Notes under the pieces: generated by a model
Databases searched by the model: none
Seen by the model: the letters and a program-made list of their open reading frames with translations, nothing else
Told to the model about the DNA's origin: nothing
DNA from: an uncultured delta proteobacterium
Lineage (GTDB): Bacteria; Desulfobacterota; Binatia; Binatales; Binataceae
NCBI GenBank assembly: GCA_963711565.1
Contig: CAVQEQ010000001.1
Coordinates: forward strand, 768,001 to 832,000
Direction of reading: 5' to 3'
DNA length: 64,000 nt
Translations under genes and position numbers: made by a program
Shown: one piece after another, positions 17,455-64,000 of the stretch
Numbering within the stretch: position 1 is the stretch's first letter
How the letters are laid out: each line of letters begins with the position of its first letter

Positions 17455-18957
17455 ATGAAAGGCGTGGAACTGTATGGGCAGGTGCGACGAGCGGTCTATG
17501 TTGAAGGACTGAGCCGGCGCGAGGCAGCGCGGCGATTCGGGATCGACCCACGGACGGTGGCGAAGATGCTGGCGTTCTCGGTGCCGCCGGGATATCGGCG
17601 GGGCCGGCCGCTGGCGCGGCCGAAGCTGGATCCGTTCGTTGGGATCATCGATCGGATCCTGGAGGAAGATAAGGGACAGCCAGCCAAGCAGCAGCACACC
17701 TCGAAGCGGATCTTCGAGCGGCTGCGAGACGAGCACGGCTACGCCGGCGGGATCACCGTTGTAAAGGACTACGTGCACGAGCGGCGGCAGCGGTCGCGTG
17801 AGATGTTCGTGCCGTTGCGCCACGAACCGGGACACGCACAGGTTGACTTCGGCGAAGCGCTGGCAGTGATCGGCGGAGTGGAGCGGAAGATCCACTTCTT
17901 CGCGATGGATCTGCCGCACAGCGACAGCTGCCTGGTACAGGCCTATCCATCGGAGAGCAGCGAAGCCTTCTGTGAAGGACACAACGTCGGCTTCGAGTTC
18001 TTCGGCGGCGTGCCGCGCTCGATCCTGTACGACAACCTCAAGCTGGCGGTGGCGCGCATCCTGGGAGACGGCCGGCGGCTAAGGATCCGGGTCTTCAGCG
18101 AGCTGCAGTCCCACTACCTGTTCACCGATCGCTTCGGACGACCCGGTAAGGGCAATGACAAGGGCAAGGTCGAAGGGTTGGTGGGCTATGCTCGGCGCAA
18201 CTTCATGGTGCCGATTCCGCACGCTGCCAGCTTCGCCGAACTCAACGCGCGCTTGCTGGAGGACTGCCGCCGTCGATTGAACGATCAGCTGCGTGGCCAT
18301 GACGAGACCATCGCCGAGCGACTGGTGCGAGACCGCGCTGCCTTCCTGCCGTTGCCGGCCACTCCCTATGAAGCCTGCGAGAAGAGAGCAGCGCGAGTCA
18401 GCTCGCTCTCGCTGGTGCGCTATCGGGGCAACGACTATTCGGTGCCCACCGCTTACGGCCACCGCGAGGTGCTGGTTCGCGGTTACGTCCACGAAGTGGT
18501 GATCGCCTGCGCGGCGGAAGAGATCGCGCGTCATCTGCGCTCCTACGAGCGCGAAGACTTCATCTTCGATCCGCTGCACTACCTGGCGCTGCTGGAACGG
18601 AAGATCGGCGCGCTGGACCAGGCCGCGCCACTGGTCGGTTGGGAACTGCCTGAAGAGTTCGCGACCCTGCGCCGTCTGCTCGAGGCTCGCCTGAGCAAGC
18701 CGGGCAAGCGCGAGTTCGTGCAGGTGCTGCGCCTGCTAGAAGTGTTCCGCACCGATGACGTATCAGCGGCGGTGAGAGAAGCGATCGCGCGCGGAGTGAT
18801 CAGCTTCGACGCAGTCAAGCATCTGGTGTTGTGCCGCATCGAACGCCGCCCACCGCGGCTGGACATGAAGATCTATCCCTACTTGCCGCGCGCCACCGTC
18901 GCGACCACCTCGGCCCGGGCCTACTTGAGCCTGCTGGCGGGAGGGGCATCGTCATGA
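17455..18957 (+). CDS. istA: IS21 transposase
   Basis: KLDPF, PGHAQVDFGE, GGVPRSILYDN, KGKVEGLV, YSVP. Confidence 0.95.
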   Translation: MKGVELYGQVRRAVYVEGLSRREAARRFGIDPRTVAKMLAFSVPPGYRRGRPLARPKLDPFVGIIDRILEEDKGQPAKQQHTSKRIFERLRDEHGYAGGITVVKDYVHERRQRSREMFVPLRHEPGHAQVDFGEALAVIGGVERKIHFFAMDLPHSDSCLVQAYPSESSEAFCEGHNVGFEFFGGVPRSILYDNLKLAVARILGDGRRLRIRVFSELQSHYLFTDRFGRPGKGNDKGKVEGLVGYARRNFMVPIPHAASFAELNARLLEDCRRRLNDQLRGHDETIAERLVRDRAAFLPLPATPYEACEKRAARVSSLSLVRYRGNDYSVPTAYGHREVLVRGYVHEVVIACAAEEIARHLRSYEREDFIFDPLHYLALLERKIGALDQAAPLVGWELPEEFATLRRLLEARLSKPGKREFVQVLRLLEVFRTDDVSAAVREAIARGVISFDAVKHLVLCRIERRPPRLDMKIYPYLPRATVATTSARAYLSLLAGGASS

Positions 18958-19733
18958 GCGACACACCGCAGGTTCTGCTCGCTCACCACCTTAAGGCGCT
19001 GAGGCTCCCAACCTTCCTGCGTGAGTACGACAAGCTGGCGCGCCAGTGCGCCGCCGAAGGTGTCGATCACTCGCGCTACCTGCTGCGCCTGGCCGAGCTT
19101 GAGATGATCGACCGGGAACGGCGGACCATCGAGCGCCGGATCAAGGAAGCCAGGTTCCCCGCAGTGAAGAGCCTCGACAGCTTCGACTTCACCGCCATCC
19201 CCTCGCTCAACAAGACCTTGGTGCTGGAACTGGCCCGCTCGGAGTACGTCGGCCGCCGTGAGAACGTCATCGCGCTCGGTAACAGCGGCACCGGCAAGAC
19301 TCACATCGCGCTGGGGCTCGGACTGGCAGCGTGCCAGAAGGGTCTCGCGGTTGGCTTCACCACCGCTGCGGCCCTGGTCAACGAACTGCACGAAGCACAC
19401 GACGAAAAGCGTCTGCAGCGACTGCAACGGCAACTCGCCGGCTTAAAGCTGCTGATCGTCGACGAGCTCGGCTACGTTCCGCTGTCACAGACCGGCGCCG
19501 AGTTGCTGTTCGAGGTCTTCAGCCAGCGCTACGAACGCGGCTCGATCATCGTGACCAGCAATCTGCCCTTCGATGAGTGGACCGGCGTGTTCGGCTCCGA
19601 GCGACTGACCGGCGCGCTGCTCGATCGCCTCACCCATCATGTCCACATCCTCGAGATGAACGGCGATAGCTTCAGGCTTAAGCACAGCAGAGGTCAGATC
19701 GTAGAAGAGCAACCACCGCAAGAACCCGACTGA
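18954..19733 (+). CDS. istB: IS21 helper ATPase
   Basis: ATGA overlap with istA; GNSGTGKTH, LLIVDELGY, TSNLPFDEW, ALLDRLTHH. Confidence 0.95.
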   Translation: MSDTPQVLLAHHLKALRLPTFLREYDKLARQCAAEGVDHSRYLLRLAELEMIDRERRTIERRIKEARFPAVKSLDSFDFTAIPSLNKTLVLELARSEYVGRRENVIALGNSGTGKTHIALGLGLAACQKGLAVGFTTAAALVNELHEAHDEKRLQRLQRQLAGLKLLIVDELGYVPLSQTGAELLFEVFSQRYERGSIIVTSNLPFDEWTGVFGSERLTGALLDRLTHHVHILEMNGDSFRLKHSRGQIVEEQPPQEPD

Positions 19734-47369: not shown

Positions 47370-48920
47370 GGTGGTGGAGGGTTTTCTATAAACTGCTGGC
47401 AGTCTTCAAAAAGTTGATCCATCATTGCTTTGATCTCCGCCAATTCGGCCGCATCAGGCCCGCACGCGTTCAGCGCTGCCCGGTAAGCATTCCACACCCG
47501 CTTCCAATTTTCTCGGATCGACTTTTTATGCTGGCCAGGATCGCAGTTCGCGGCGAAATAATCGCCACATCTATTTCCGAGGGAAGCCACTGCAGCGGCC
47601 AAGTTTCTAATCGCCTTTCCGCAGTCTCGGAATGGGAATTCGCCCATTGGATCGGTGAAGTTCGTCGGATCATTTGCAACATACGCATACAGATCAATCC
47701 CGCCGAGGAAGTCGATCGGATCCTGCGCCATGAACCCCTGGAGGGTCGGGCTGTAGTATCTTGCGCGATAGAAGTACAATCCAGCGCCGTCGTTTTCTCT
47801 GCCGGTGAACTGGTACGGGTTCGAGCTCGATACCCCGGTGAGGGTGGTATTGCCGAATGGATCGTATGAATATTGCGTCTGGATGGTGCCGGACAAATCG
47901 GTGAGTGCAAGGGTGCTTCCGAGGGGGTCACTGATATAGCTGCTCGGGCCAGAGCCGTCGCTGCGTTGAAAGTACTCATCGATTCCGAGCCCGGTCAGCA
48001 TGTTCGCGCCTGGAGCGCCACTCTGGAGCTCCTGCACTGGATTTAACCCGTCGTAGAGGAACTGCGTAGACGTACTGTTGACCGTCTTCTGTGCGCGCCT
48101 ACCGTCGGCGTCGTACGCGAAGCTCGCAGCATTAGGACCGGCGATCGCCGTCAGGTGATTTCGGGCATCCCAGTTGTAAGTGCTCGTCCCGTCGTTGGTC
48201 AGGTTGCCGTTGGCATCGTAGGTCTGCGGCGTTCCGTTGAACGCGGTCATTTCGTTCGCTGCGTTGAACGAGTTCCCCGTCACCGCCTGCGGCAGCCCGG
48301 TCTGCGCGAAGCTGCCGGTCTTCTCAATCACCCGGCTGTCCGCGTCGTATGAATACTCTAGATCGCCCACCGTGTTGCTCCCCAGCGTCCAGCTCATCGC
48401 CGTCACGTGCGAGTCGATGTCGTAAGTATACGCGAGCACGATGCCGTTGGGCAGAGTCAGCGTGTTCCTGCGGTCCGCGTTGTCATATGCGATCGGAATC
48501 GACGCGCTGCCTTGGGTGATTCCGGTCAGCCGGTTCGCATTGTCCCAGGAATATGAAACCGTCGGCTGCCCGACCACCGTCATCGTCTGACGCCGGCGGG
48601 CGTTGTCGTAGAAATAGCCAACTTCGCCCTGCGCGGTCTGCTCGTCCGTCAGGTCGTCCAAGCCGTCATACTGCCGGACGGTCGTTCCCGCAATCGAGTC
48701 GACGATCTGTGTGATGCGGTCTCCGGGATCGAATGTGTAGCTGCTCGTGCTTTCGTAGCTGCCGCTGGTGTACCCGAAGCCGGCGAATTTGCGCCGGTTA
48801 ATCCCGTCGTATTGGTAAACGCTCGTCTCACCGCGCCGGTCCGTATGGCCGGTCAGGTTGCCGTTGCCATCGTAGCCGTAAGTCTCGGTCGCCGCCAGCG
48901 GGTCGGTCCGCGAAGCCTTG
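47366..48920 (-). pseudogene. Orphan Rhs module C (partial core plus helical Cys-containing tip)
   Basis: YD repeats, PTNFTDPMG cleavage motif; upstream 48920-49155 is scrambled core sequence. Confidence 0.85.
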
Positions 48921-49213
48921 CGGTACGGGTTCGAGCTCGATGATTTCGCGCATCCCAACCTCGCCCCTGCGCTCTCTTGCTCGTCCTTCAGGTCGTCCAG
49001 ACCGTCATACCGGGCGCATGACGGTTCCCGCAATCGAGTCGACGATCTGCATGACCCGATCTCCAAGATCGAAAGTGTAAGCGCTCCGTAGCTGCTGGCA
49101 GTGCACCCGAAGCCACGAACTTGCGGTGGTTGATCCCGACGTACTGATAGACGGTAACTTTGCAGCAATTCTAGATATTTCTCGAGTGAAGTCGGATTGA
49201 AAATCAGGACACG

Positions 49214-49714
49214 TCAATTGGACGTTGCCAGGCTGGTCGTTTTTGCAAACTTCCTATGCAGATACGGTAAAGCCTTGAACCACTGCAAATATCCTAGCGT
49301 CACCGGAATCAGCCACCATATACCCACGAAAACTAGCTCTCCATCGCACGCCTGCGGCCCGATAACTGGACAGAGCAAGCGACTCAGTACAAACGTGATA
49401 GAAAATGATAATATACTCGACGGAAAACAATAAATCATCGTGGGGAAATTTGACAGCCACTGAGACTGCTCTGCGAGGCGTGGTTCATCCAGGTTACCGC
49501 CAATGCTGAGGTGGTAGTATTCGAAGGCAAGGATCGCCATCAGGTGAGCCACAACAAGGGCCACCCAAATGGCGCGCGCCGATTTAAAATGTTCTAGGGC
49601 AAAACGTCCGAACCAGATCGTTGCCACTAAGAGGCCAAAGAAACAGAGCGCATAGGCGAGAAAGATAAGTATCAAGAATGCGTCCACTAGAGAGTCTCGC
49701 CAGTGAGTGTGCAT
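49214..49714 (-). CDS. Membrane immunity protein for tip A (copy 2)
   Basis: About 4 TM helices; overlaps the toxin stop; identical to 53934-54434. Confidence 0.7.
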   Translation of the reverse strand: MHTHWRDSLVDAFLILIFLAYALCFFGLLVATIWFGRFALEHFKSARAIWVALVVAHLMAILAFEYYHLSIGGNLDEPRLAEQSQWLSNFPTMIYCFPSSILSFSITFVLSRLLCPVIGPQACDGELVFVGIWWLIPVTLGYLQWFKALPYLHRKFAKTTSLATSN

Positions 49715-51378
49715 GCTTCCTTACACGCCGATTCAGTGGCCCACGCCCAATCGAAACAGTCATGAATAGGAATGGTATAGTGACCAGGATCAAGCCCGAA
49801 GAAATACTGAACACACTGGTCAACGCATGGTCTGTCTTTGCTGACTGTGATGCAAAAGTCGGCTTTATTCCAATCGTCGGGATTTAATACCCCATCATCG
49901 TATGGATTATGGCGGTCTTTAGGGTACATACCTTTGCACGTGTTCCTATTGGGGGCGCAAAGGAACATGTGAGGTATAGGTCTCGGTAGTTCTACACATA
50001 ACAGGGTGTCAAGCCCGGTTGGATCGGTCAAATTGGTCGGGCTATTCCCCGCGTACCCGTAGAGATTGATCCCGCCCTTAAAGCCGACCGGGTCTTGTGA
50101 GATGAACCTTCCCGGCGAGGGCGAGTAATATCTATGCCGATTAAAATACAGTCCGATGCCGTCGTTTTCCCGGCCGGTGAACTGGTACGGGTTCGCGCTT
50201 GCTTGCCCGGTCGCTGCGGAATTACCGAACGGGTCGTATGTATACGAGGTCTGTTGCGTTCCACTAGAGTCGGTGAGGGCGAGCGTGCTGCCGAGTATAT
50301 CGGTCAAGTAATCTCGGGCGCCGGCCGAGTCGGTGCGCTGCAAGTACTCATCAATGCCAAGACCCGTCAACATGTTGGCGCTCGGGGCGCCATTCTGAAG
50401 CTCCTGGACCGGATTCATGCCGTCGTAGAGGAACTGCGTAGACGTACTGTTGACCGTCTTCTGTGCGCGCCTACCGTCGGCGTCGTACGCGAAGCTCGCA
50501 GCATTAGGACCGGCGATCGCCGTCAGGTGATTTCGGGCATCCCAGTTGTAAGTGCTCGTCCCGTCGTTGGTCAGATTGCCGTTGGCATCGTAGGTCTGCG
50601 GCGTTCCATTAAAGGCGGTCATCTCGTTTGCCGCGTTGAACGTGTTCCCCGTCACCGCCTGCGGCAGCCCCGTCTGCGCGAAGCTGCCCGTCTTCTCGAT
50701 CACCCGGCTGTCCGCGTCGTATGAATATTCGAGATCGCCCACCGGATTGCTTGCCAGCGTCCAAGTCATCGCCGTCACGTGCGAGTCGATGTCGTAAGTA
50801 TACGCGAGCACGATGCCGTTGGGCAGAGTCAGCGTGTTCCTGCGGTCCGCGTTGTCATATGCGATCGGAATCGACGCGCTGCCTTGGGTGATTCCGGTCA
50901 GCCGGTTCGCATTGTCCCAGGAATATGAAACCGTCGGCTGCCCGACCACCGTCATCGTCTGACGCCGGCGGGCGTTGTCGTAGAAATAGCCAACTTCGCC
51001 CTGCGCGGTCTGCTCGTCCGTCAGGTCGTCCAAGCCGTCATACTGCCGGACGGTCGTTCCGGCGATCGAGTTGACGATCTGTGTGATGCGGTCCCCGAGA
51101 TCGAATGTGTAGCTGCTGGTGCTTTCGTAGCTGCCGCTGGTGTACCCGAAACCGGCGAATTTGCGCCGGTTGATCCCGTCGTACTGGTAGACGCTCGTCT
51201 CGCCGCGCCGGTCCGTATGGCCGGTCAGGTTGCCGTTGCCGTCGTAGCCGTAGGTCTCGGTCGCCGCCAGCGGATCGGTCCGCGAGGCCTTGCGATTCAT
51301 CGGGTCGTACGTATATGAGGTCAGACCGCCGTTCGCGTCGGTCACGCTCGTCAGATTGCTGTTTGGGTCGTATCCGTG
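49687..51378 (-). pseudogene. Orphan Rhs module with tip A (copy 2)
   Basis: YD repeats, PTNLTDPTGL, tip PHMFLC..GMYP...HYTIPIHDCFDWA. Confidence 0.85.
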
Positions 51379-52046: not shown

Positions 52047-53640
52047 CTATATACCTATCGGAGTGCCCCCGAGAATCAATGAGAGGAGAATGAGTTCGGC
52101 TATCAAGCTGCTTGTCGTCTGATCAGGCCGTGCTGCTTGCTTGTAAGGGTCGGAAAGAGGACACGACTCTTCTTTCGGTTGACCGCCACCGTCTGGAGGA
52201 GGTTCCTCACATTTCTCATCGTACTCGGCTTGGAGATCGTCTAATTGATTATGTAGGACGCCCAGTGCACCGGCGTTTCTATTGAGGAACGCAGCGCCAA
52301 TTAATTTCTTAATCTCCTCGATTGCTTTACGAAGATCTTCGCATTCCTCAGACTCGAGTCCAGTTGGATCTGTTCTGCTCAGCGGATTGTTTAGAACATA
52401 GGAATAAAGATTGACCTCTCCCCCCATTAAGCCGATCGGATCCTGCGCCATGAACCCCTGGAGGGTCGGGCTGTAGTATCTTGCGCGATAGAAGTACAAT
52501 CCAGCGCCGTCGTTTTCTCTGCCGGTGAACTGGTACGGGTTCGAGCTCGATACCCCGGTGAGGGTGGTATTGCCGAATGGATCGTAAGTATAGGACGTTT
52601 GTGTGCTTCCGCTGGAGTCGGTCAGCGCAAGCGTGCTGCCGAGAATATCGGTCATATAGTTGCGGGCACCAGCCGAATCAGTACGCTGAAAGTATTCATC
52701 AACACCGAGACCAGTCAGCAGATTCGCGCTTGGGGCTCCACTCTGAATCTCTTGTACTGGATTTAACCCGTCGTAGAGGAACTGCGTAGACGTACTGTTG
52801 ACCGTCTTCTGTGCGCGCCTACCGTCGGCGTCGTACGCGAAGCTCGCAGCATTAGGACCGGCGATCGCCGTCAGGTGATTTCGGGCATCCCAGTTGTAAG
52901 TGCTCGTCCCGTCGTTGGCGAGATTGCCGTTGGCATCGTAGGTCTGCGGCGTTCCGTTGAACGAGGTCATCTCATTGGCCGCGTTGAAGGTATTACCGCT
53001 AACCGGCTGCGGCAGCCCGGTCTGCGCGAAGCTGCCGGTCTTCTCAATCACCCGGCTGTCCGCGTCGTATGCGTACTCGAGGTCGCCCACCGGATTGCCC
53101 GCCAACGTCCAGCTCATTCCCGTCACGTGCGAATCGTTGTCGTAAGTATACGTCAACAAAATCCCGTTGGGCAGAGTCAGCGTGTTCCTGCGGTCCGCGT
53201 TGTCATATGCGATCGGAATCGACGCGCTGCCTTGGGTGATTCTGGTCAGCCGGTTCGCATTGTCCCAGGAATATGAAACCGTCGGCTGCCCGACCACCGT
53301 CATCGTCTGACGCCGGCGGGCGTTGTCGTAGAAATAGCCAACTTCGCCCTGCGCGGTCTGCTCGTCCGTCAGGTCGTCCAAGCCGTCATACTGCCGGACG
53401 GTCGTTCCCGCAATCGAGTCGACGATCTGTGTGATGCGGTCTCCGGGATCGAATGTGTAGCTGCTCGTGCTTTCGTAGCTGCCGCTGGTGTACCCGAAGC
53501 CGGCGAATTTGCGCCGGTTAATCCCGTCGTATTGGTAAACGCTCGTCTCACCGCGCCGGTCCGTATGGCCGGTCAGGTTGCCGTTGCCATCGTAGCCGTA
53601 AGTCTCGGTCGCCGCCAGCGGGTCGGTCCGCGAAGCCTTG
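52047..53640 (-). pseudogene. Orphan Rhs module B
   Basis: YD repeats, PLSRTDPTGL, coiled tip ending in hydrophobic LIAELILLSLILGG. Confidence 0.85.
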
Positions 53641-53933
53641 CGGTACGGGTTCGAGCTCGATGATTTCGCGCATCCCAACCTCGCCCCTGCGCTCTCTTGC
53701 TCGTCCTTCAGGTCGTCCAGACCGTCATACCGGGCGCATGACGGTTCCCGCAATCGAGTCGACGATCTGCATGACCCGATCTCCAAGATCGAAAGTGTAA
53801 GCGCTCCGTAGCTGCTGGCAGTGCACCCGAAGCCACGAACTTGCGGTGGTTGATCCCGACGTACTGATAGACGGTAACTTTGCAGCAATTCTAGATATTT
53901 CTCGAGTGAAGTCGGATTGAAAATCAGGACACG

Positions 53934-54434
53934 TCAATTGGACGTTGCCAGGCTGGTCGTTTTTGCAAACTTCCTATGCAGATACGGTAAAGCCTTGAAC
54001 CACTGCAAATATCCTAGCGTCACCGGAATCAGCCACCATATACCCACGAAAACTAGCTCTCCATCGCACGCCTGCGGCCCGATAACTGGACAGAGCAAGC
54101 GACTCAGTACAAACGTGATAGAAAATGATAATATACTCGACGGAAAACAATAAATCATCGTGGGGAAATTTGACAGCCACTGAGACTGCTCTGCGAGGCG
54201 TGGTTCATCCAGGTTACCGCCAATGCTGAGGTGGTAGTATTCGAAGGCAAGGATCGCCATCAGGTGAGCCACAACAAGGGCCACCCAAATGGCGCGCGCC
54301 GATTTAAAATGTTCTAGGGCAAAACGTCCGAACCAGATCGTTGCCACTAAGAGGCCAAAGAAACAGAGCGCATAGGCGAGAAAGATAAGTATCAAGAATG
54401 CGTCCACTAGAGAGTCTCGCCAGTGAGTGTGCAT
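53934..54434 (-). CDS. Membrane immunity protein for tip A (copy 1)
   Basis: As 49214-49714. Confidence 0.7.
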   Translation of the reverse strand: MHTHWRDSLVDAFLILIFLAYALCFFGLLVATIWFGRFALEHFKSARAIWVALVVAHLMAILAFEYYHLSIGGNLDEPRLAEQSQWLSNFPTMIYCFPSSILSFSITFVLSRLLCPVIGPQACDGELVFVGIWWLIPVTLGYLQWFKALPYLHRKFAKTTSLATSN

Positions 54435-56745
54435 GCTTCCTTACACGCCGATTCAGTGGCCCACGCCCAATCGAAACAGTCATGAATAGGAATGGTATAG
54501 TGACCAGGATCAAGCCCGAAGAAATACTGAACACACTGGTCAACGCATGGTCTGTCTTTGCTGACTGTGATGCAAAAGTCGGCTTTATTCCAATCGTCGG
54601 GATTTAATACCCCATCATCGTATGGATTATGGCGGTCTTTAGGGTACATACCTTTGCACGTGTTCCTATTGGGGGCGCAAAGGAACATGTGAGGTATAGG
54701 TCTCGGTAGTTCTACACATAACAGGGTGTCAAGCCCGGTTGGATCGGTCAAATTGGTCGGGCTATTCCCCGCGTACCCGTAGAGATTGATCCCGCCCTTA
54801 AAGCCGACCGGGTCTTGTGAGATGAACCTTCCCGGCGAGGGCGAGTAATATCTATGCCGATTAAAATACAGTCCGATGCCGTCGTTTTCCCGGCCGGTGA
54901 ACTGGTACGGGTTCGCGCTTGCTTGCCCGGTCGCTGCGGAATTACCGAACGGGTCGTATGTATACGAGGTCTGTTGCGTTCCACTAGAGTCGGTGAGGGC
55001 GAGCGTGCTGCCGAGTATATCGGTCAAGTAATCTCGGGCGCCGGCCGAGTCGGTGCGCTGCAAGTACTCATCAATGCCAAGACCCGTCAACATGTTGGCG
55101 CTCGGGGCGCCATTCTGAAGCTCCTGGACCGGATTCATGCCGTCGTAGAGGAACTGCGTAGACGTACTGTTGACCGTCTTCTGTGCGCGCCTACCGTCGG
55201 CGTCGTACGCGAAGCTCGCAGCATTAGGACCGGCGATCGCCGTCAGGTGATTTCGGGCATCCCAGTTGTAAGTGCTCGTCCCGTCGTTGGCGAGATTGCC
55301 GTTGGCATCGTAGGTCTGCGGCGTTCCGTTGAACGAGGTCATCTCATTGGCCGCGTTGAAGGTATTACCGCTAACCGGCTGCGGCAGCCCGGTCTGCGCG
55401 AAGCTGCCGGTCTTCTCAATCACCCGGCTGTCCGCGTCGTATGCGTACTCGAGATCGCCCACCGGATTGCTTGCCAGCGTCCAAGTCATCGCCGTCACCC
55501 GCGAATCGTTGTCGTAAGTATATGTCAGCACTATGCCGTTGGGCAAAGTCAACGAGGTTCTGCGGTCCGCGCTGTCATAGCCGAACGGGATCGACATGCT
55601 CCCCTGCGTAATCCCGATCAGTCGATTGGCATTGTCCCATCCGTAAGATACCGTCGGCTGCCCCACCACCGTCATCGTCTGACGCCGGCGGGCGTTGTCG
55701 TAGAAATAGCCAACTTCGCCCTGCGCGGTCTGCTCGTCCGTCAGGTCGTCCAAGCCGTCATACTGCCGGACGGTTGTCCCCGCAATCGAGTCGACGATCT
55801 GTGTGATGCGGTCTCCGGGATCGAATGTGTAGCTGCTCGTGCTTTCGTAGCTGCCGCTGGCGTACCCGAAGCCGGCGAATTTGCGCCGGTTGATCCCGTC
55901 GTACTGATAGACGGTGGTCTGGCCGCGGCGGTCGGTGTGGCCGGTCAGGTTGCCGTTGCCGTCGTAGCCGTAGGTCTCGGTCGCCAGCAGCGGGTCGGTC
56001 CGGGAAGCCTTGCGATTCATCGGGTCGTAGGTATAACTGGTCACCCCGCCGTTCGCGTCGGTCACGGTCGTCAGATTGCTGTTTTCGTCGTAGCCGAACT
56101 TCGTCAGGTGGCCGTCCGTGTCCATGCTCTGGGTCAGATCGTCCAGCGGCGAGTAGGAAAGGTTGGTGGTGCTGCCCAACGGATCCTCGGTCCAAATCGT
56201 ACGGCCCGCCGCGTCCGAGAAAAAATAGCTGGTGTTGCCGAGCGGGTCGGCGATCGAGGTCAGATCACCGTTGGTATAGGCGAAGTGTGTGGTGTCGCCG
56301 AGTGCGTCGGCGTATGAGATCAAATTGCCCTCGGTATCGTGATTTTCCGTGGTCTGATGCCCGAGCGGGTCGGTAATGGTCTGGACGTTGCCGTTGCCGT
56401 CGAGGCTGAAGGTCCAGGTGTGGCCAAGCGGGTCGGTCACGCTGGTAATCTGGCTGAAGTTGGGGTCGTACTGGTATGAGGTGGTAGCCGGGCTGGAGGT
56501 CCCCGCGAGCTGGGTCTCACTTAGAGTGTTTCCCAGAGAATCGTAGGTGTATGCCGTTGTTCGACCTAGCGCATCAGTCTTGGACTGAACGAGATTGGTG
56601 TTCGGGTCCCGTGTGTAGGTCGTAGTCTGCTGCTCCGGATCACCTTGCGCCAGCACATCCTTGGTAAGGAAGCCGTTGGAATTGAACTCCATGTGGCGGA
56701 TGTAGCCATTTGGATCGGTATATTCGGTCACGTCCGTTGATGGAT
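54407..56745 (-). pseudogene. Longest Rhs/YD core with tip A, 5'-truncated
   Basis: About 780 aa of YD repeats (TDPLG, YD..GN), Rhs-associated core, DPTGL; no N-terminal trafficking domain. Confidence 0.85.
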
Positions 56746-56789: not shown

Positions 56790-58059
56790 AGCATCATTTG
56801 CGTACGATGCCACCGGTCGGCGTACCCAAGCGGTATTGCCCAATGGAGTTGCTCTGACCTATGGTTACGACGTGGGACCCCGGATCAATGAGCTGACCTG
56901 GTCGGGTCCACTGGGTCAGATCGGCAATCTCGGCTATGTATATGACGCGGACGGCCGCGTGATTCAGAAGACCGGTAGCTTCGCGCAGGTCGTGCTACCT
57001 CAGACCATCAACGGAAACAGTTTCAACGCCGCGAATCAGATGGTGGCATTCAATGGGACACCTCTAACCTACGATGCCAACGGCAATTTGACCAACGACG
57101 GTACTAACACCTACTCTTGGGACGAGCGTAGTCGACTGGTAGGGATTAACGGTTCAACGGGTGGGCCAACAAGCTTCACGTATGACCCATTTGGACGGCG
57201 CGCCAGCAAGACTGTCGGCGGTGCGACCACCCAGTTTCAATACGACGGTACTCGAGTAGTTCAGGAAATTCAGCCCGGGGCTGGCAATGTCTTGACGGAT
57301 ATGGGGTTCAGCCGCACGGACTTGGCCGGCAATATGACCTTCCTGGGCGACCTCCTCGGAAGCGTAATCGCGCTGGCCAGCGATGCCGGCGCTGTCGCTA
57401 CGCAGTATTCATATGAACCATTCGGAGCATCGGTTGCCAGCGGCGCGACCAGTACCAATCCGTACCAGTTTGCTTTTCACCAGAACGACGGCACCGGCTT
57501 GTACTACTACTCAGCGCGTTACTACAGTCCAACACTTGCGCGTTTCATTAGCGAAGATCCATCTGGCACACGCGGCGGCATCAATCTGTATGAGTATGCG
57601 GCCGATCAGCCGGTGACATTTGAAGATTCAACAGGCTTGAATCCGGATGATGGAAATGGGTCATGCAGACCCTGTACAATCTACCTAAGGTCTCACCCGG
57701 CCTTCTGGGGATTGGTTGATCAGCGCCACTATTTCTGGGAAACACTCGACAGCGGCGACCAACCTGGAAACAGACAGTTTGATTCGGGCGAAGATGAAGA
57801 TGGCTATCTGAATCATACTACCGCAAAGACAGATGATAACGAGTCAGATCCTCCGGCCTATCCCCCGATAGGACCCTCGACGGAGGTCTGCCGCAGAGTA
57901 GCTGATGTACGGAGTGCTGGGGCGGCGTGGCCAAATTGGATTTTTGGTTATTGGTGGACTGGGCCGAATAGCAATACCGTTGCCGGCTACATAAACAATT
58001 TTTCCGGAGTCGGCTTCAATCAGCCACCAGACTCTTTGGGTTGGCGCTGGAGTCCGTGA
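56790..58059 (+). pseudogene. Orphan Rhs module P1 (divergent core, His...GPNSNT tip)
   Basis: YDADGRVIQKTGSF, ARYYSP..RFISEDP..NLYEYA..PVTFEDSTGL; no true start. Confidence 0.85.
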
Positions 58060-59087
58060 GCGCTCTTTGTGGCATGAAGAGTGTGGGATCGATGGTGGTG
58101 GCTATGGTTGTACTAGCGCCGATGGTATCAATGCGGGCTCAAGCGGCTGCGAACCCCGGGAACGATTCGCGCGCTGTCGCCGCAATGTTGAGCCAGTACG
58201 AAACCGTATTCTACACGAATACGGATCTATCCTCGAAATTTAGTTCCTTCAAGGGACTTTCCAGGCAGGTCGCCGGAGCATTGAGCGTCCCCTTCGGAGA
58301 TTTGATCTATTGACTCGATTTGTTGGGCCCATACGCCTCGGCTGATTTGCTTGCAAAGAGCGAAGCCGTTCTCATGGGTGGCAAAGGCTTTGTCCCGTCC
58401 GAGGGCGAGGGGGCGGCGCAAGTGTCGCGTTTCTGTTACATAGTTACCTTCGGAGTAGAGGGCCAGCCGGATTTTCAAAAATACGCCGCGAAAGCACATA
58501 AGACATCGATGGCGGGAGGAACGGTGTGGAGTTGGCAGGTACACTCGCCGGACCCTCGTGGGCAGACCGTCACTTACTATGCAGCTCAGATTCGCGATTC
58601 CTATCTAGTGGTTTCGAATGACCTCGGTGAACTTCAAGCGATCACGAGAAAATTGACCTCTTCGGGTGACTTTTCTACGACGCTCAGCGGTATTCGCGAC
58701 TGGATAATCCTGGGTCAGCATGAATATTGGGGATATCGGCGCGTGCGACATGACGGGGTTGTCGAAAAGGACGCGTCCAGGCTGGAGTCTACGTTGCCCG
58801 GCGCTGAGACCATCATCATGTTCGCCGACATCAAAAGGAAGATCGCGATAGTCCGGGTGCTCGGTGTTCACGCAAACAAAGTTGTCGAGATGACGAAACA
58901 AAGGGACGAACAACAGCGGGACGCGCTGAAACGTTTGGGCCTGCGGCAGTCATTCGCTGCGCCGCAAGAATTCAAAGCAACCGACCCCAGGACTCTGGAA
59001 AAGATGTTCAGCCTCTCCGGCGGCGAGCAGAGCGAAGGCGAGATAGTCACTTCAATGGGGCTGTTCGGCTTCGAGATGATCATTTGA
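58056..59087 (+). pseudogene. Exported protein interrupted by in-frame TGA (58311-58313); putative immunity
   Basis: GTGA overlap with the P1 stop; signal peptide ...MRAQAAA; ORFs 58041 and 58320 are in the same frame. Confidence 0.6.
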
Positions 59088-60136
59088 AAGCCATCGTCCA
59101 AATGACCGTCCGAAGATGTGTGGCTATGACCGCTGCATTAGTAAGCGCATTCGGCGTCGCGATCGCGGCTGATTCGAGCTCGACTCCGTCCGCTGCAATT
59201 TTCGTTGCTAACATTCACGGCTACGTGACTGTGTATCCACTTGGCAGCAACGGCGACGCAGCTCCTATCTCTACCATAGAAGGCGCTGCCACTCAGTTGG
59301 GCAGTCCCGAAGAGATCACGCTTGATTCAAAAGGCAATATCTATGTGACCAGCGAGGTGTGGAACGCAGGCGCCTACGCGGGCGACAGCGTAGTCGTGTT
59401 TTCCGCCGGCAGCAAAGGTAACGCCAGTCCGATCGCAACTATCGGCGGTCCCCACACGAGAATGCGTGGCGTACATTCGATAGCTGTGGATTCAATGGGT
59501 AGTATCTATGTGGGGGCGATTGAACCGGCCCCCGCCGGCGTGCGTATCTTTGCTGCCGGGAGCAATGGCGACGTAAAACCGCGCGCTGACATCGGCGGCT
59601 CCAAAACCGAATTGCAAGGCGCCAGCGGGATCGCGGTAGATCCGAAAGGTACACTCATAGTTGCGAACTTATCTGGGTTGCCCACGGGTAGTGGCGTCCT
59701 CGTCTTTCCGGCTGGCGCCGACGGTGACTTGAGACCCAGCGCGACCATCAGCGGAGCTAAGGCGGGTATCGACTGGCCAGCTGGCATTGCCCTGGATCCG
59801 CTTGGCAACATTTATCTTGCGGATGCAGGTCGCCACGGTTCACCCGCCAGCATCAGAGTCTACTCAGCCGGCAGTAACGGTGATGTGCTCCCCACGGTCA
59901 CGATAAGCGGCTCCAACACGGGTCTCAATGGACGCACCGTGCGGGGCATCGCATTGGACTCCGCAAATAACATGTACGTCACGAGCGATGGCCATGACTC
60001 CACAGAGAGCAGCATCACGGTTTTCAAGGCCGGCAGCAATGGCAACGTCAAGCCCATGGCCGTGATCAGTGGAGATAACACGGGATTGTCAGCAGCCGTA
60101 GGAATCGCAATCGGGCCATACCGCGGCACTCATTGA
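59084..60136 (+). CDS. Secreted NHL-repeat beta-propeller protein
   Basis: Signal peptide; about 6 repeats of P..TI.G..T.L....GIA.D..GNIYV...VF.AGSNG. Confidence 0.88.
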   Translation: MKAIVQMTVRRCVAMTAALVSAFGVAIAADSSSTPSAAIFVANIHGYVTVYPLGSNGDAAPISTIEGAATQLGSPEEITLDSKGNIYVTSEVWNAGAYAGDSVVVFSAGSKGNASPIATIGGPHTRMRGVHSIAVDSMGSIYVGAIEPAPAGVRIFAAGSNGDVKPRADIGGSKTELQGASGIAVDPKGTLIVANLSGLPTGSGVLVFPAGADGDLRPSATISGAKAGIDWPAGIALDPLGNIYLADAGRHGSPASIRVYSAGSNGDVLPTVTISGSNTGLNGRTVRGIALDSANNMYVTSDGHDSTESSITVFKAGSNGNVKPMAVISGDNTGLSAAVGIAIGPYRGTH

Positions 60137-60170
60137 TCGAGCCAAATTCGGCCTGAGGCAGGGCGCTTTC

Positions 60171-61092
60171 CTTCACGTATGACCCATTTGGACGGCGCGC
60201 CAGCAAGACTGTCGGCGGTGCGACCACCCAGTTTCAGTATGATGGCAATCGAGTCGTTCAGGAAATTCAGCCTGGGACCGGCAATGTGCTGACGGATATG
60301 GGTTTCAGTCGAACGGACTTATCCGGGAACATGACGTTCCTGGGCGACCTCCTTGGGAGCACAGTCGCACTCGCCAACGACGCTGGTGCAGTCGCTACGC
60401 AGTATTCGTATCAGCCCTTTGGGGCCGCAGTGGCTAGCGGTGCGGCCAGTTCGAATCCATATCAATTTGCTTTTCACCAGAACGATGGAACTGGCTTGTA
60501 CTACTACTCGGCACGCTACTATAGCCCGACACTCGGACGTTTTATCAGCGAAGATCCTTCTGGAACACGAGGCGGCATCAATCTGTATGAGTATGCAGGC
60601 GACCAGCCAGTGACCTTTGAAGATGAAGCAGGCTTGAGTCCGAGCGACGGGAGTGGGTCATGCAGACCCTGTACGATTCAACTAATGTATCACCAGGTCT
60701 GGTTTGTGCCAAAGTTTGCTGCCGAAAAGAATCACTTCTTCTGGGCAACTTGGAAGGAGGGAGGCACCGGCCTACGAACTAATTCTGGAGAATCGTTGCC
60801 TGACCCTTATCTTGACGAAAGACAAGACGTTGATACGGACAATCCATATCTTCCTGACCAGCGGCTATTCGAAAATGAAACTTCAACAGAAATATGCGAC
60901 CAGGTGGATCGTCTGAGAAACGCAGCAGACACTTGGGGAAATAAGGTAACCAGATATAATGTTTTGGGGCCGAACAGCAACACAGTCGCCAGCTATATTT
61001 ACCAGAAATCCGGTATCGGGTCGCGTCAGTCTTTCAGTCTTCAACCTAATGACCTCCTAGCGCCTGGATGGAGCCTAGGAACTGCTTACTAG
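60171..61092 (+). pseudogene. Orphan Rhs module P2
   Basis: Core homology begins FTYDPFGRR; PVTFEDEAGL; tip HFFW...GPNSNTVA. Confidence 0.85.
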
Positions 61093-61281
61093 GTGCTTAT
61101 TTCTGAAATCCCAAGATAGGACTCTGAATAGTCAGGTGAGGTTACTGTACTCTGCGGCCTTAGGGGCGTTGCGCAGATCTGCAGTGCTCAAAAGAGGGAC
61201 CTATCGTTATTCTTTATCCGAAGCGACAGAAAACAAACCTGATCTCATAGAATATCTTTTTCGAGGCTTCGAGATGATCGT

Positions 61282-62379
61282 ATGAATGTGCAAAGGTTTC
61301 TGAGGCTTGCCGGGAGCGTGATGGTTACGGTTTTCCTGCTGAACGTTAGCGGATGTGCTCTGGCGGCCGAGTCGGCCTCGACGCCGCTGGATGAAGCAGT
61401 TTTTGTTACAAATCTGGGCGGCAACTACATAACTATTTATGACTTGAAAAACAACGGCGACACGGCGCCACTCGCTAACATCGACGGAACCACCGTTAGT
61501 CGGGTGTTTGACTCAGTGATTCGAGGTGGCAGCGGGTTGGATGATCCATTGGGCGTAGCTTTGGATCTAGCCGGGAACATCTATGTCGGAAACGATTCGG
61601 GCGGAGCCAATTACACTGGAGCTATCGATGTTTTCCAAGCTGGTGCTCACGGCAGGGCAACGCCGATCGCCAAAATCGATGGTCCAGATACCGGGCTTTA
61701 CACCGTCAAGTCGATCGCGGTTGACTCGAAGGGAAACATCTATGCGACAAGACAGGCGTATCTCTATGATCGTTCTGCGCCGGGCGTCAACGTCTATCCG
61801 GCTGGCAGCACTGGCAACGTCAAGCCAATTGCAGTCATCAGCGGACCGAACACCGGTATCGATAACCTTGAGGGCATAGCAGTCGATTCCAAAGGAAGCA
61901 TATACGTCACAAACAATGCAGGTTCTGGAAGCATACTTGTGTTCCCAGCCGGCAGTAGCGGCGACGTGAGACCAACCGCTGTCATCGGACCCTCGAAAAC
62001 GAACTCGGTTGGCGCTCTCGCGTTGGATTCGAGGGCGAACGTCTACGTTGTGAGGCTCAGCGGTAGCGAGCGGTCTCGCCGCGAAACCATTGAGATATAT
62101 AGAGCAGGGAGCAGCCGCGTTGATCCGCCTATCGCGACCATTAGTGGCCCGAAAACTGGGCTTGCCGATCCGAATTACACGATTCGTGGAATCGCAATTG
62201 ATTCAATCGGAAATATCTACGTGGCAGTTGAGGACGAAGGCCTTGCACCAGGAAGCAAGCTGATTGTTTACGCATCAGGAAGCGACGGCGACGTTTCGCC
62301 CAAGGCCATTATTGAAGGTCCGCATACGAGACTCAACGGAGCGCATGGCTTGGCTATCGGTCGGTTCAAGTACCCATGA
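61282..62379 (+). CDS. Secreted NHL-repeat beta-propeller protein
   Basis: Signal peptide ...ALAA; repeats ISGPNTGIDNLEGIAVDSKGSIYV; paralog of 59084-60136. Confidence 0.88.
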   Translation: MNVQRFLRLAGSVMVTVFLLNVSGCALAAESASTPLDEAVFVTNLGGNYITIYDLKNNGDTAPLANIDGTTVSRVFDSVIRGGSGLDDPLGVALDLAGNIYVGNDSGGANYTGAIDVFQAGAHGRATPIAKIDGPDTGLYTVKSIAVDSKGNIYATRQAYLYDRSAPGVNVYPAGSTGNVKPIAVISGPNTGIDNLEGIAVDSKGSIYVTNNAGSGSILVFPAGSSGDVRPTAVIGPSKTNSVGALALDSRANVYVVRLSGSERSRRETIEIYRAGSSRVDPPIATISGPKTGLADPNYTIRGIAIDSIGNIYVAVEDEGLAPGSKLIVYASGSDGDVSPKAIIEGPHTRLNGAHGLAIGRFKYP

Positions 62380-62469
62380 TTACTGCTGATTGCGTTCACT
62401 ACTCCGTCGCCTTGTTTCGTGCCCGCGTTGCCATGAAGCGAACAGGAACGGTTTGGTAGTCACGGATCG

Positions 62470-63956
62470 ATGGAGTCGATCGTTTGACCCAAATTGTCGA
62501 TTCTCTATACGGTACGATTACTCGCACCTACTACTGTATGGATGATTTGATCGGCGAACAAACGCCGCTGGGCGAGATCAGCTACAACTACGACGCCGCT
62601 CATCGGCTGTTGTCAACGATGGTGGATGGTCAGACGCCCATCACATACAGCTATGATGGAATCGATCATCTGACCGGTATGACACAGGGCAGCAGCTCGG
62701 CATACGATGCCACCGGTCGGCGTACTCAAGCCGTACTGCCCAACGGAGTCGCGCTGGCCTATGGTTACGATGTGGGCCAGCGGGTCAACCAGCTGACCTG
62801 GTCGGGTCCACAAGGTTCGATCGGCAATCTCGGCTACGTGTACGACGCTGACGGCCGCGTGATTCAGAAGACTGGTAGCTTCGCGCAGGTCGTGCTGCCT
62901 CAGACCATCAGCGGAAACAGTTTCAACGCCGCGAATCAGATGGTGGCATTCAATGGGACGGCTCTCACCTACGATGCCAATGGCAACCTGACCAACGATG
63001 GTACCAACACCTACGCCTGGGACGAGCGTAATCGCCTGGTCGGGATGAGCGGTTCACCCAGTGGGCCGGCAAGCTTCGCATACGACCCATTCGGACGGCG
63101 CGCCAGCAAGACCGTCGGCGGGACGACAACGCAATTCCAATATGATGGCAATCGAGTGGTGCAGGAAATTCAGCCTGGGGCTGGCAATGTGCTGACAGAT
63201 ATGGGGTTCAGCCGTACGGACTTGAGCGGAAACATGACGTTCCTGGGCGACCTCCTCGGAAGCGTAATTGCGCTGGCCAGCGACGCGGGAGCTGTCGATA
63301 CGCAATATTCCTACGAGCCATTCGGAGCATCGCTCGCCAGCGGCGCGGCCAGTTCGAATCCATATCAATTCGCGTTTCACCAGAACGATGGAACCGGATT
63401 GTACTACTACTCGGCACGCTATTACAGTCCCACGCTCGGCCGATTCATTAGCGAAGACCCGTCCGGGACCAGCGGCGGGCTCAATCTTTATGAGTACGCC
63501 GGCGACCAGCCGGTGACGTTCGAAGATTCGACAGGCTTAAGCCCGAGCGACGGCAACGGGTCGTGCCGGCCTTGCGCGATTAACCTGTGGTACCACACGG
63601 CATTCTATGTCTCCCCCTACGTTCACACATTCTGGCAAAGCATCAAAGACGGAGAACCCCGATATGACTCCGGCACTTGGGCGTTTCCCTTTCTCAATCA
63701 CACTACACACAAGGAAGATGACAATGATATGCCCCCTAACCAGATCGCATGGGGAACCGGATTTTCAACAGATGTTTGTGACAAGGTAGATCTTCTCAGA
63801 CAAGTGGCGGATTCCTGGCCGAACGACACCATCTTCTACGACCTCATGGGGCCAAATAGCAACACGGTTGCGAGTTGGATAAACACGGAAGCTGCTCTGG
63901 GTGCGAACCCACCAACGAACGCTCTAGGCTGGGAGTGGGGAACCGATGCTGAATAA
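62470..63956 (+). pseudogene. Orphan Rhs module P3
   Basis: TQIVDS..GT..R core, PVTFEDSTGL, tip HTFW...GPNSNTVA. Confidence 0.85.
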
Positions 63957-64000
63957 GTCATCGTTGGATGAAAAACATCGGTCGCACAATCCGAAGGAAA

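Follow-up and report, generated by a model that had tools for sequence, protein, structure and literature searches.

The window analysed here, positions 768001 to 832000 (64,000 nucleotides) of contig C1 of an uncultured delta proteobacterium of the Binataceae (genome G000, 94.9% complete), holds two orphan Rhs arrays that stand back to back and meet at about position 56790; positions are those of the window unless a contig is named. The left array lies on the minus strand and comprises five cassettes, whereas the right array lies on the plus strand and comprises four, the tips of which all come from one family, with a last Rhs fragment beyond them. YD repeats and an Rhs-associated core are followed by a variable C-terminal tip, which makes these Rhs polymorphic toxin cassettes, and since no Rhs head is found in C1:808000-837000 those of the right array are orphan cassettes. 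Our subject is the tips of the right array, which on the evidence of their predicted structure are a Ser-type, DUF3750-related family of permuted NlpC/P60 warheads, together with the exported protein encoded behind the first of them.

The three tips that lie wholly within the window, P1, P2 and P3, each follow an Rhs core ending in EDxxGL; between cassettes the core DNA is about 80% alike up to the tip, where the similarity is lost within about 60 bases. The tips are 41-46% identical (P2 and P3 share 41 and 46% with P1), and GSCRPC, a His, HxFW, SG, STxxC, W-x-N, Y-x3-GPNSNTVA and GW are invariant across all three. Mutual tblastn searches gave E values of 1e-16 to 1e-27, a likeness beyond chance, and the description of three paralogous tips on a shared scaffold in an earlier note on this DNA was therefore correct. 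Beyond the window, at a distance of about 1.9 kb, there is a fourth intact tip, P4 (C1:833896-834333), and the C-terminal half of a decayed fifth at about C1:832345-832440 (9.8 bits, a score reached by 0 of 300 random genome stretches); a six-frame profile search of the genome found no further copy. The tips are acidic, with 18 Asp and Glu against 6-13 Lys and Arg counted over the whole sequence and not the pocket, and acidity has been tied to retained activity of Ser variants (PMC10318531).

An AlphaFold2 model of P3 built on a 122-row alignment (predicted local distance difference test score, pLDDT, 90.4; predicted template modelling score 0.85) has five strands followed by helices at residues 77-91 and 107-117. 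His29 stands at the start of strand 2 (28-36) and Ser107 at the start of the last helix, so the His strand comes first and the nucleophile lies at the N-terminus of a later helix, as in the permuted NlpC/P60 group; the Cys nucleophile of that group is replaced by Ser, and the tips are in this respect a Ser variant. In a structure comparison against 48,161 chains, the nine best rows were papain-like and the tenth dropped to Z 3.6. TseH (Z 8.4, root mean square deviation (rmsd) 3.0, 111 aligned residues) and Aichi virus 2A (7.8) came first, followed by Bacillus cereus 3kw0, PLAAT4 and DeSI (6.2), with YiiX (5.9), CLN5 (5.8) and RID (4.7) lower down; the remaining row, the Euglena complex subunit 8iuf_E7 (Z 6.0), carries no annotation in the comparison table. 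Foldseek ranked PPPDE1, Aichi 2A and TseH first, none of them at E<=0.001, and the Atlas feature scores of the tip were 0.96 with unnamed clusters, 0.92 with DUF3750 and 0.90 with TseH. We believe that the tips almost certainly adopt the permuted papain-like (NlpC/P60) fold that the earlier note had proposed, with their His and Ser predicted to occupy the places of the His and Cys of TseH, LRAT/PLAAT, YiiX and PPPDE. In the homologous tip of locus L018, the corresponding His24 and Ser111 fall within one predicted interface, which places them on the same face only.

A profile of the three tips found 166 representatives at E<=0.001 among 1.84 billion, of which the best 150 were examined. The conservation alignment has 140 rows, our own four and 136 from the library; 13 of the 150 library matches, shorter than 105 amino acids (aa), were omitted, and a false match (P0043) that is included in the 141-row counts and the 71-row tree below is excluded from the 140-row counts and the 18-row test. 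The nucleophile column holds Ser in 139 rows and Cys in one, a count that a search profile made from Ser tips may favour somewhat, and the His column holds His in 131 with a gap in four, which upholds the assignment of a His and a Ser to the catalytic positions. The only family member with Cys, P0106, provides a natural comparison for the chemistry. In the strand-3 column Ser occurs in 86 rows, Asp in 24 and Thr in 18. Every one of the 140 rows has the helix Cys, and 108 of the 113 long enough to judge have the strand-1 Cys, the second of CRPC; an extra Cys before it, the first of CRPC, is present in 32 of the 108. Because only the second CRPC Cys and the helix Cys are family-wide, one disulfide is likely and not two, so that the disulfides once suggested for the CRPC and STEVC Cys residues stand as far as the second Cys of CRPC and fall for the first. 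The first His of the motif pattern likewise proved to be no family trait (Arg in 100 and His in 10 of 141 rows). Given the modelled position of the conserved Ser, we consider it probable that this residue is catalytic.

The tip is a C-terminal domain in most of its carriers: in 145 of the best 150 of the 166 library matches the match ends 40 aa or less from the C-terminus, and an Rhs core was matched in 68 of the 96 library members with more than 60 aa before the tip. Several of the remaining carriers are non-Rhs proteins with signal peptides. In P0042, P0046, P0084, P0114, P0115, P0122 and P0147, the tip ends a signal-peptide-bearing protein without Rhs repeats, possibly an undescribed carrier type; four of these were scanned and matched no Pfam family. 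By eye and hydropathy, signal-peptide-like starts are also seen in carriers P0038, L115 and L116 and in the genome's own full-length Rhs. Carriers with titles come from Acidobacteriota and Candidatus Binatus, and the spread is patchy: two of the 46 other genomes of the genus (G005 and G469) have a tip, and within one Acidobacteriota order a complete copy is present in 2 of 401 genomes. At the edge of the search, P0186, P0188 and P0190 represent another branch of Rhs tips, rich in Cys, which have GPNSNT and score weakly against DUF3750. NCBIfam has no family for the tips, and sequence searches of the PDB with tip profiles returned chance rows only (Dokki_15 at E 0.49, PilX at E 0.93).

Table 1. 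Features of the right-hand Rhs array within the window.
Feature	Position	Strand	Evidence and remarks
Rhs core remnant, cassette 1 (YD repeats, Rhs-associated core; without start region or secretion head)	56791..57639	+	RHS_repeat E 9e-13, TIGR03696 E 4e-22
Tip P1, 139 aa	57640..58059	+	His30 57727-57729, Ser111 57970-57972; fold taken from P3 model
Candidate immunity partner, ~337 aa, signal peptide, predicted TP0453 fold	58074..59087	+	Behind P1; in-frame stop 58311-58313
Exported NHL/SBBP beta-propeller 1	59084..60136	+	Pfam SBBP and NHL
Rhs core remnant, cassette 2, short	60157..60636	+	83% DNA identity to cassette 1 core; tblastn
Tip P2, 151 aa	60637..61092	+	His33 60733-60735, Ser114 60976-60978
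Exported NHL/SBBP beta-propeller 2, first gene behind P2, no partner gene between	61282..62379	+	Pfam SBBP and NHL
Rhs core remnant, cassette 3	62484..63539	+	Core comparison with other cassettes
Tip P3, 138 aa	63540..63956	+	Cys12, His29 (63624-63626), Ser44, Cys80, Ser107 (63858-63860)
Small membrane protein frame behind P3, start in window; alternative immunity candidate	63972..64000 (to C1:832343)	+	Two hydrophobic stretches

The protein encoded behind P1 (Table 1) belongs to a family that is new and that we regard, from its context and models, as a candidate for immunity. Scanning with a DNA pattern yielded 71 loci, of which 13 without a tip were dropped and 58 kept; as the pattern fixes the Ser codon, these loci were kept out of the Ser count. 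A search of genome contigs with the three-tip alignment found no related loci. Homologues of this partner, about 320-340 aa long, are encoded by the next gene in 32 of the 58 tip loci (29 of 48 tip clusters at 90% identity), and in a fresh draw of 400 genomes the sole full tip (G131) has the partner directly behind it. At the remaining loci this place is taken by exported or membrane-bound proteins of five or more further families, one of which looks like what we take to be an FGE-sulfatase lipoprotein. The partner N-terminus is hydrophobic in 31 of 34 members and lipobox-like in eight. The family matched nothing in Pfam or NCBIfam, and PF20740, the family of TP0453, matched 0 of 27 members at E<=0.1. 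The model of the partner (pLDDT 84), however, has the overall alpha/beta/alpha fold of TP0453 (3k8g; Z 10.7, rmsd 4.3, 217 of 251 residues aligned, next row 6.2), and its Atlas score was 0.95 with a cluster that is 21% TP0453.

When the tip and partner of L018 were folded together, the predicted complex scored 0.90, against 0.00 for the best of three controls. Of 157 solved complexes 116 attain the mark for this score, as do 2 of 215 mismatched pairs, counts that hold roughly for a complex folded with our own alignments; the runs agree in at least 91% of contacts and the pLDDT of the partner is at least 87. On the tip side the interface comprises His24, Asn110-Ser111-Asn112, Gly42-Pro43 and loop 12-23, which is the most divergent spacer when P1-P4 are compared. 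According to this prediction the partner would cap the His/Ser face of the tip, and the complex supports binding between the two. The downstream partners, their hydrophobic N-termini, the signal peptides of carriers and the predicted complex all support the extracytoplasmic toxin-immunity setting that had been suggested from the DNA, and we think it very probable that the tips act in the periplasm.

Within the window the partner gene carries an in-frame stop, which is also found in contigs of runs X2, X3 and X7, whereas the frame is open in X1, which may be the sample that the genome came from; the nonsense codon is polymorphic among soil populations. A truncated copy of the partner, C1:832497-833260, follows the decayed fifth tip. 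Partner and NHL propeller form a two-gene exported module, seen at 58074-60136 and in L093, L094, L095, L097 and L098, and the propeller follows the partner in five of five other genus loci examined. Each of the two propeller genes is immediately preceded by a 15-base word (at 59067 and 61265) that the genome contains nowhere else, which suggests that cassette 2 lost its partner gene. A partner remnant between P2 and the second propeller was sought with a protein profile, which gave no support (42 of 300 controls scored as high). The small membrane protein behind P3 has no relative among the downstream genes compared.

The history of the tips differs from that proposed in the earlier note, which saw diversification within the array and an arms race with immunity proteins. 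The cores, with nonsynonymous divergence (dN) of 0.04-0.09 against synonymous divergence (dS) of 0.74-1.17, are under purifying selection. Between tips, the proportion of nonsynonymous differences (pN) is 0.36-0.49 and dS is saturated in five of six pairs, so dN/dS cannot reveal positive selection in the tips. The four tips form one clade in 0% of 200 bootstrap trees of 71 rows, and in the 18-row test their monophyly was rejected (p-AU 1.8e-5, by the approximately unbiased test; 0.004 for P1-P3 alone). P1-P3 and three sequences from outside together make up one well-supported subfamily, and P1 and P3 have closer relatives elsewhere (69/123 and 66/103 identical) than within the array. Judged from these sequences, the array gathered older tip variants instead of breeding them in place. 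For the supposed arms race, the sole hint is that interface columns outside the motifs vary more than other columns do (2.95 vs 2.35 bits, p 0.002), a split made post hoc, after the interface was seen, and loops vary anyway.

The sole full-length Rhs of the genome, at C1:1204594-1208223, is a 1209-aa frame with a signal-peptide-like start, and no Hcp was found in the genome at its 94.9% completeness. The core of cassette 1 begins at the end of the minus-strand array and shares 85% DNA identity with that of cassette 3. Soil-run contigs of two studies cross the junction between the arrays, and one contig of run X6 has identical parts in a rearranged order, which indicates that the layout is real and is shuffled between strains. 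None of the runs listed as containing this DNA is an RNA run. A tRNA-Ala(CGC) gene at C1:835445-835518 (minus strand) directly follows the last Rhs fragment and is a likely island integration site; the guanine-cytosine content of the array region, 0.46-0.60, dips below the contig-wide 0.61, from which we infer an island at this tRNA. The earlier note described the left array as carrying unrelated tips; it does have four distinct ones, but among its five cassettes one tip is duplicated letter for letter (49687-50010 and 54407-54730, minus strand), within a 3.67-kb tandem duplication of 95% identity (47709-51376 and 52429-56096). This duplicated tip has an early His, a late Y-x4-H-D-C and several Cys residues, as a Cys-type permuted papain-like domain would have, and the gene behind it encodes a 166-aa membrane protein. 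It has no Pfam match, the Ser-tip profile does not match it, and a search of longer proteins found its own protein and one 83% relative only. Two further orphan Rhs sites with unrelated tips lie at C4:790033-793328 and C1:594555-595505, and an IS21-family transposase and IstB pair lies at 17455-19733.

Based on these observations, we propose a model for the action of the tips. Each tip ends an Rhs core in an array that has no Rhs head, because of which the array cassettes are probably silent. Recombination through the 80-85% identical cores would join a cassette to a full-length Rhs and so activate it, as in established Rhs biology; the genome's only full-length Rhs and three long tip carriers appear to start with Sec-type signal peptides, and the tip would be released. 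After export one Cys pair would likely be disulfide-bonded, with the predicted His opening strand 2, the Ser opening the helix after Y-x3-G-P-N and the strand-3 Ser, Asp or Thr perhaps acting as a third residue. By analogy with Tox-Act1 and TseH, the activity would be that of a phospholipase or acyltransferase; given the fold, a catalytic Ser and periplasmic action, a lipid substrate seems to us fairly probable. The partner is predicted to cover the His together with the N-S-N motif and the variable loop between strands 1 and 2. To the whole of this, that is, Rhs warheads that would cut acyl bonds in the envelope lipids of rivals from the periplasm by a Ser-His site and be capped by a TP0453-fold partner, we would give an even chance. 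That the tips are a natural antibacterial weapon with a papain fold and a Ser nucleophile, a Sec-exported, disulfide-braced Ser-His lipid acyl hydrolase met by a new immunity class drawn from the TP0453 lipid-carrier fold, is possible, at slightly short of even.

Several observations weigh against this model. A Z of 8.4 is near the level given as common for unrelated folds, and the case for the fold rests on the agreement of the top rows; nor does the fold fix the substrate, because desumoylases, amidases and viral 2A proteins share it. The complex was folded for the homologous L018 pair, with our own alignments, both drawn from the same 27 loci, and its interface taken whole is not more variable than the rest (2.45 vs 2.35 bits, p 0.23). 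In the window the partner follows only P1, and with a stop, while other genes stand behind P2, P3 and P4. The partner stands alone in G319 (in G171 it lies at contig ends), and in 5 of 46 genus genomes, once at a contig end, partner and NHL propeller occur with no tip or Rhs core within 1.5 kb. This last finding would suit tip and partner being an exported lipid-handling module of enzyme, TP0453-like carrier and beta-propeller that Rhs and other secreted proteins carry along, as would the proposal that TP0453 carries lipids (PMC5421087) and the inclusion in DUF3750 of a stand-alone, membrane-anchored protein, P0184. However, the tip sits in an interchangeable C-terminal slot among unrelated tips and is patchily distributed, and no fewer than five unrelated families occupy the place behind it at other loci, which is what replaceable immunity would lead one to expect. 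Orphan immunity genes are, moreover, common, and we regard such a module as very unlikely. The array itself may be a decaying relic, never expressed or recombined, which would be compatible with our model of the tips. The missing head, the two arrays back to back, the stop in the partner, the decayed fifth tip and the truncated second partner copy all fit a relic, and the full-length Rhs, 39% identical to the longest fragment, would be too distant for easy recombination. Since all four tips nevertheless have open frames and every motif residue, the cores are constrained (dN far below dS), the parts are reordered in X6 and the partner is intact in X1, we think this unlikely, if a fate to be kept in mind.

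Two further explanations concern the chemistry. The tips could be active Ser-His toxins, delivered and countered as in our model, whose target is an amide bond in peptidoglycan stems, lipoprotein anchors or envelope proteins, and the evidence from fold and context would be identical. TseH was first proposed as an endopeptidase (PMC12994826), PMC10318531 describes C92/3kw0 as a lipid amidase and PPPDE/DeSI as isopeptidases, and the N-terminal half of the partner weakly resembles the Tsi3 and TplEi immunity folds (Z 4.9 and 3.9). Nevertheless, PMC12994826 assigns lipid targets to the permuted group and describes the peptidoglycan peptidases as canonical. Several of the alternative downstream genes, like Imm-Act1, encode membrane proteins, which likewise tells against an amide target. 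A Ser nucleophile is better suited to esters than to amides, and on balance an amide target appears improbable. The tips could also be catalytically dead papain-fold domains that harm by binding the envelope, their Ser serving as a structural helix cap. The available text of PMC10318531 cites no experimentally proven natural Ser papain-fold enzyme and terms the idea speculative, and the strand-3 residue, mostly Ser and not Asp or Glu, would be a weak activator. Yet the His, Tyr and Asn-Ser-Asn are near invariant while the surrounding surface turns over, P0106 has Cys at the Ser position and the partner is predicted to cover precisely the His/Ser site; a dead enzyme is, we believe, distinctly improbable.

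A Ser at the nucleophile site is not in itself new, being known for DUF3750 (PMC10318531). What is new here is a Ser-type permuted papain domain as the tip of a polymorphic toxin, with a cognate exported partner of TP0453 fold; no account of such a domain at the end of an Rhs protein, or of its partner, came up in our literature searches, which left subscription journals mostly uncovered. The activity of papain-fold families with Ser for Cys is left open in PMC10318531, and a toxin with a cognate inhibitor turns that question into a plate assay. If our model is true, the survival or death of cells would report on whether papain families that exchanged Cys for Ser are real enzymes, and the exchange itself might be what allows the warhead to function under the oxidising conditions of the periplasm. 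The weapons of soil bacteria, of which little is known, would gain a toxin family and an immunity fold. For DUF3750, and for TP0453-like proteins outside spirochaetes, there would be a first lead to function, and the orphan array would be seen to store several old forms of a single warhead.

DUF3750 (PF12570) is close to the tips in sequence and, like them, has a permuted papain-like fold with Ser for Cys (PMC10318531); the earlier note, which had taken it for a family with His and an N-C-N motif, was mistaken on this point. The tips carry its Y-x3/4-GPNSN[ST] motif, with Ser in place of Cys. A DUF3750 member, P0184 (125.7 bits), matched the tip profile with probability 95.5 (E 1.3e-8) and GPNSNT in register, with only the C-terminal 55 columns aligned. 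The DUF3750 Pfam model matches 19 of 122 tip-family rows at E<=0.05; P3 scores 20.2 bits (E 0.001), under the gathering score of 25 bits, and P1 and P2 give no match. Genome searches with PF12570 found nothing, and their controls gave no hit either. Being aligned in the C-terminal part yet under the Pfam cut-off, the tips are best seen as a sister family of DUF3750, and P0184 differs from them in standing alone, having an N-terminal anchor and lacking the helix Cys. Literature searches for DUF3750 or PF12570 led to PMC10318531 only, a 2023 survey that lists DUF3750, menin, 2HLY, DUF2145 and DUF2272 as Ser-bearing papain-like families whose activity is speculative; in the available text it places DUF3750 in no toxin or immunity context, and 'Rhs' does not occur. 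Papain folds at Rhs C-termini have been described before, in Tox-PL1/2/3 and other papain-like polymorphic toxin domains, but all are listed with Cys in the available text of PMC3482391, and the tips have no Pfam match to them. LRAT/PLAAT, YiiX (C92), PPPDE/DeSI (C97) and the picornaviral H-box/NC 2A proteins (Z 5.9-7.8 over 92-112 residues) share the early His and the nucleophile at the start of a late helix; in contrast to the tips, they are Cys-based cellular or viral proteins, 8-11% identical, and do not belong to toxin cassettes.

For the partner, TP0453 of Treponema pallidum offers a similar fold and is likewise exported, the partner being sometimes lipoprotein-like, at 8% identity; the available text of PMC5421087, a review, describes it as a membrane-inserting lipid carrier and not as an immunity protein. 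For the tips, the best structural match is TseH (6v98; PF25218), an antibacterial type VI secretion system (T6SS) effector of Vibrio cholerae from the permuted NlpC/P60 group, aligned over 111 of the 138 residues of P3. TseH is 14% identical to the tip and uses a Cys nucleophile, C186 (PMC12994826); the Pfam TseH model matches none of the 122 tip-family rows at E<=0.05, and in place of the Cys of its His-Cys dyad the tips have Ser. TseH is also delivered by the T6SS, whereas tip carriers have signal peptides and the source genome was found without Hcp. The available text of PMC12994826 mentions neither DUF3750 nor 'serine', and DUF3750, PF12570 and TP0453 are absent from nine supplementary files, while the online STox alignments could hold a relative. 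TseH showed phospholipase activity in one assay, and Tox-Act1 of Salmonella, which cleaves phosphatidylglycerol and phosphatidylethanolamine, is toxic only in the periplasm (PMC12994826). Tox-Act1, set apart from the tips by description, relies on His43/Cys151 and is countered by Imm-Act1, a two-helix membrane protein; as a polymorphic toxin with a permuted NlpC/P60 core, it is the functional model that we have used for the tips of this array.

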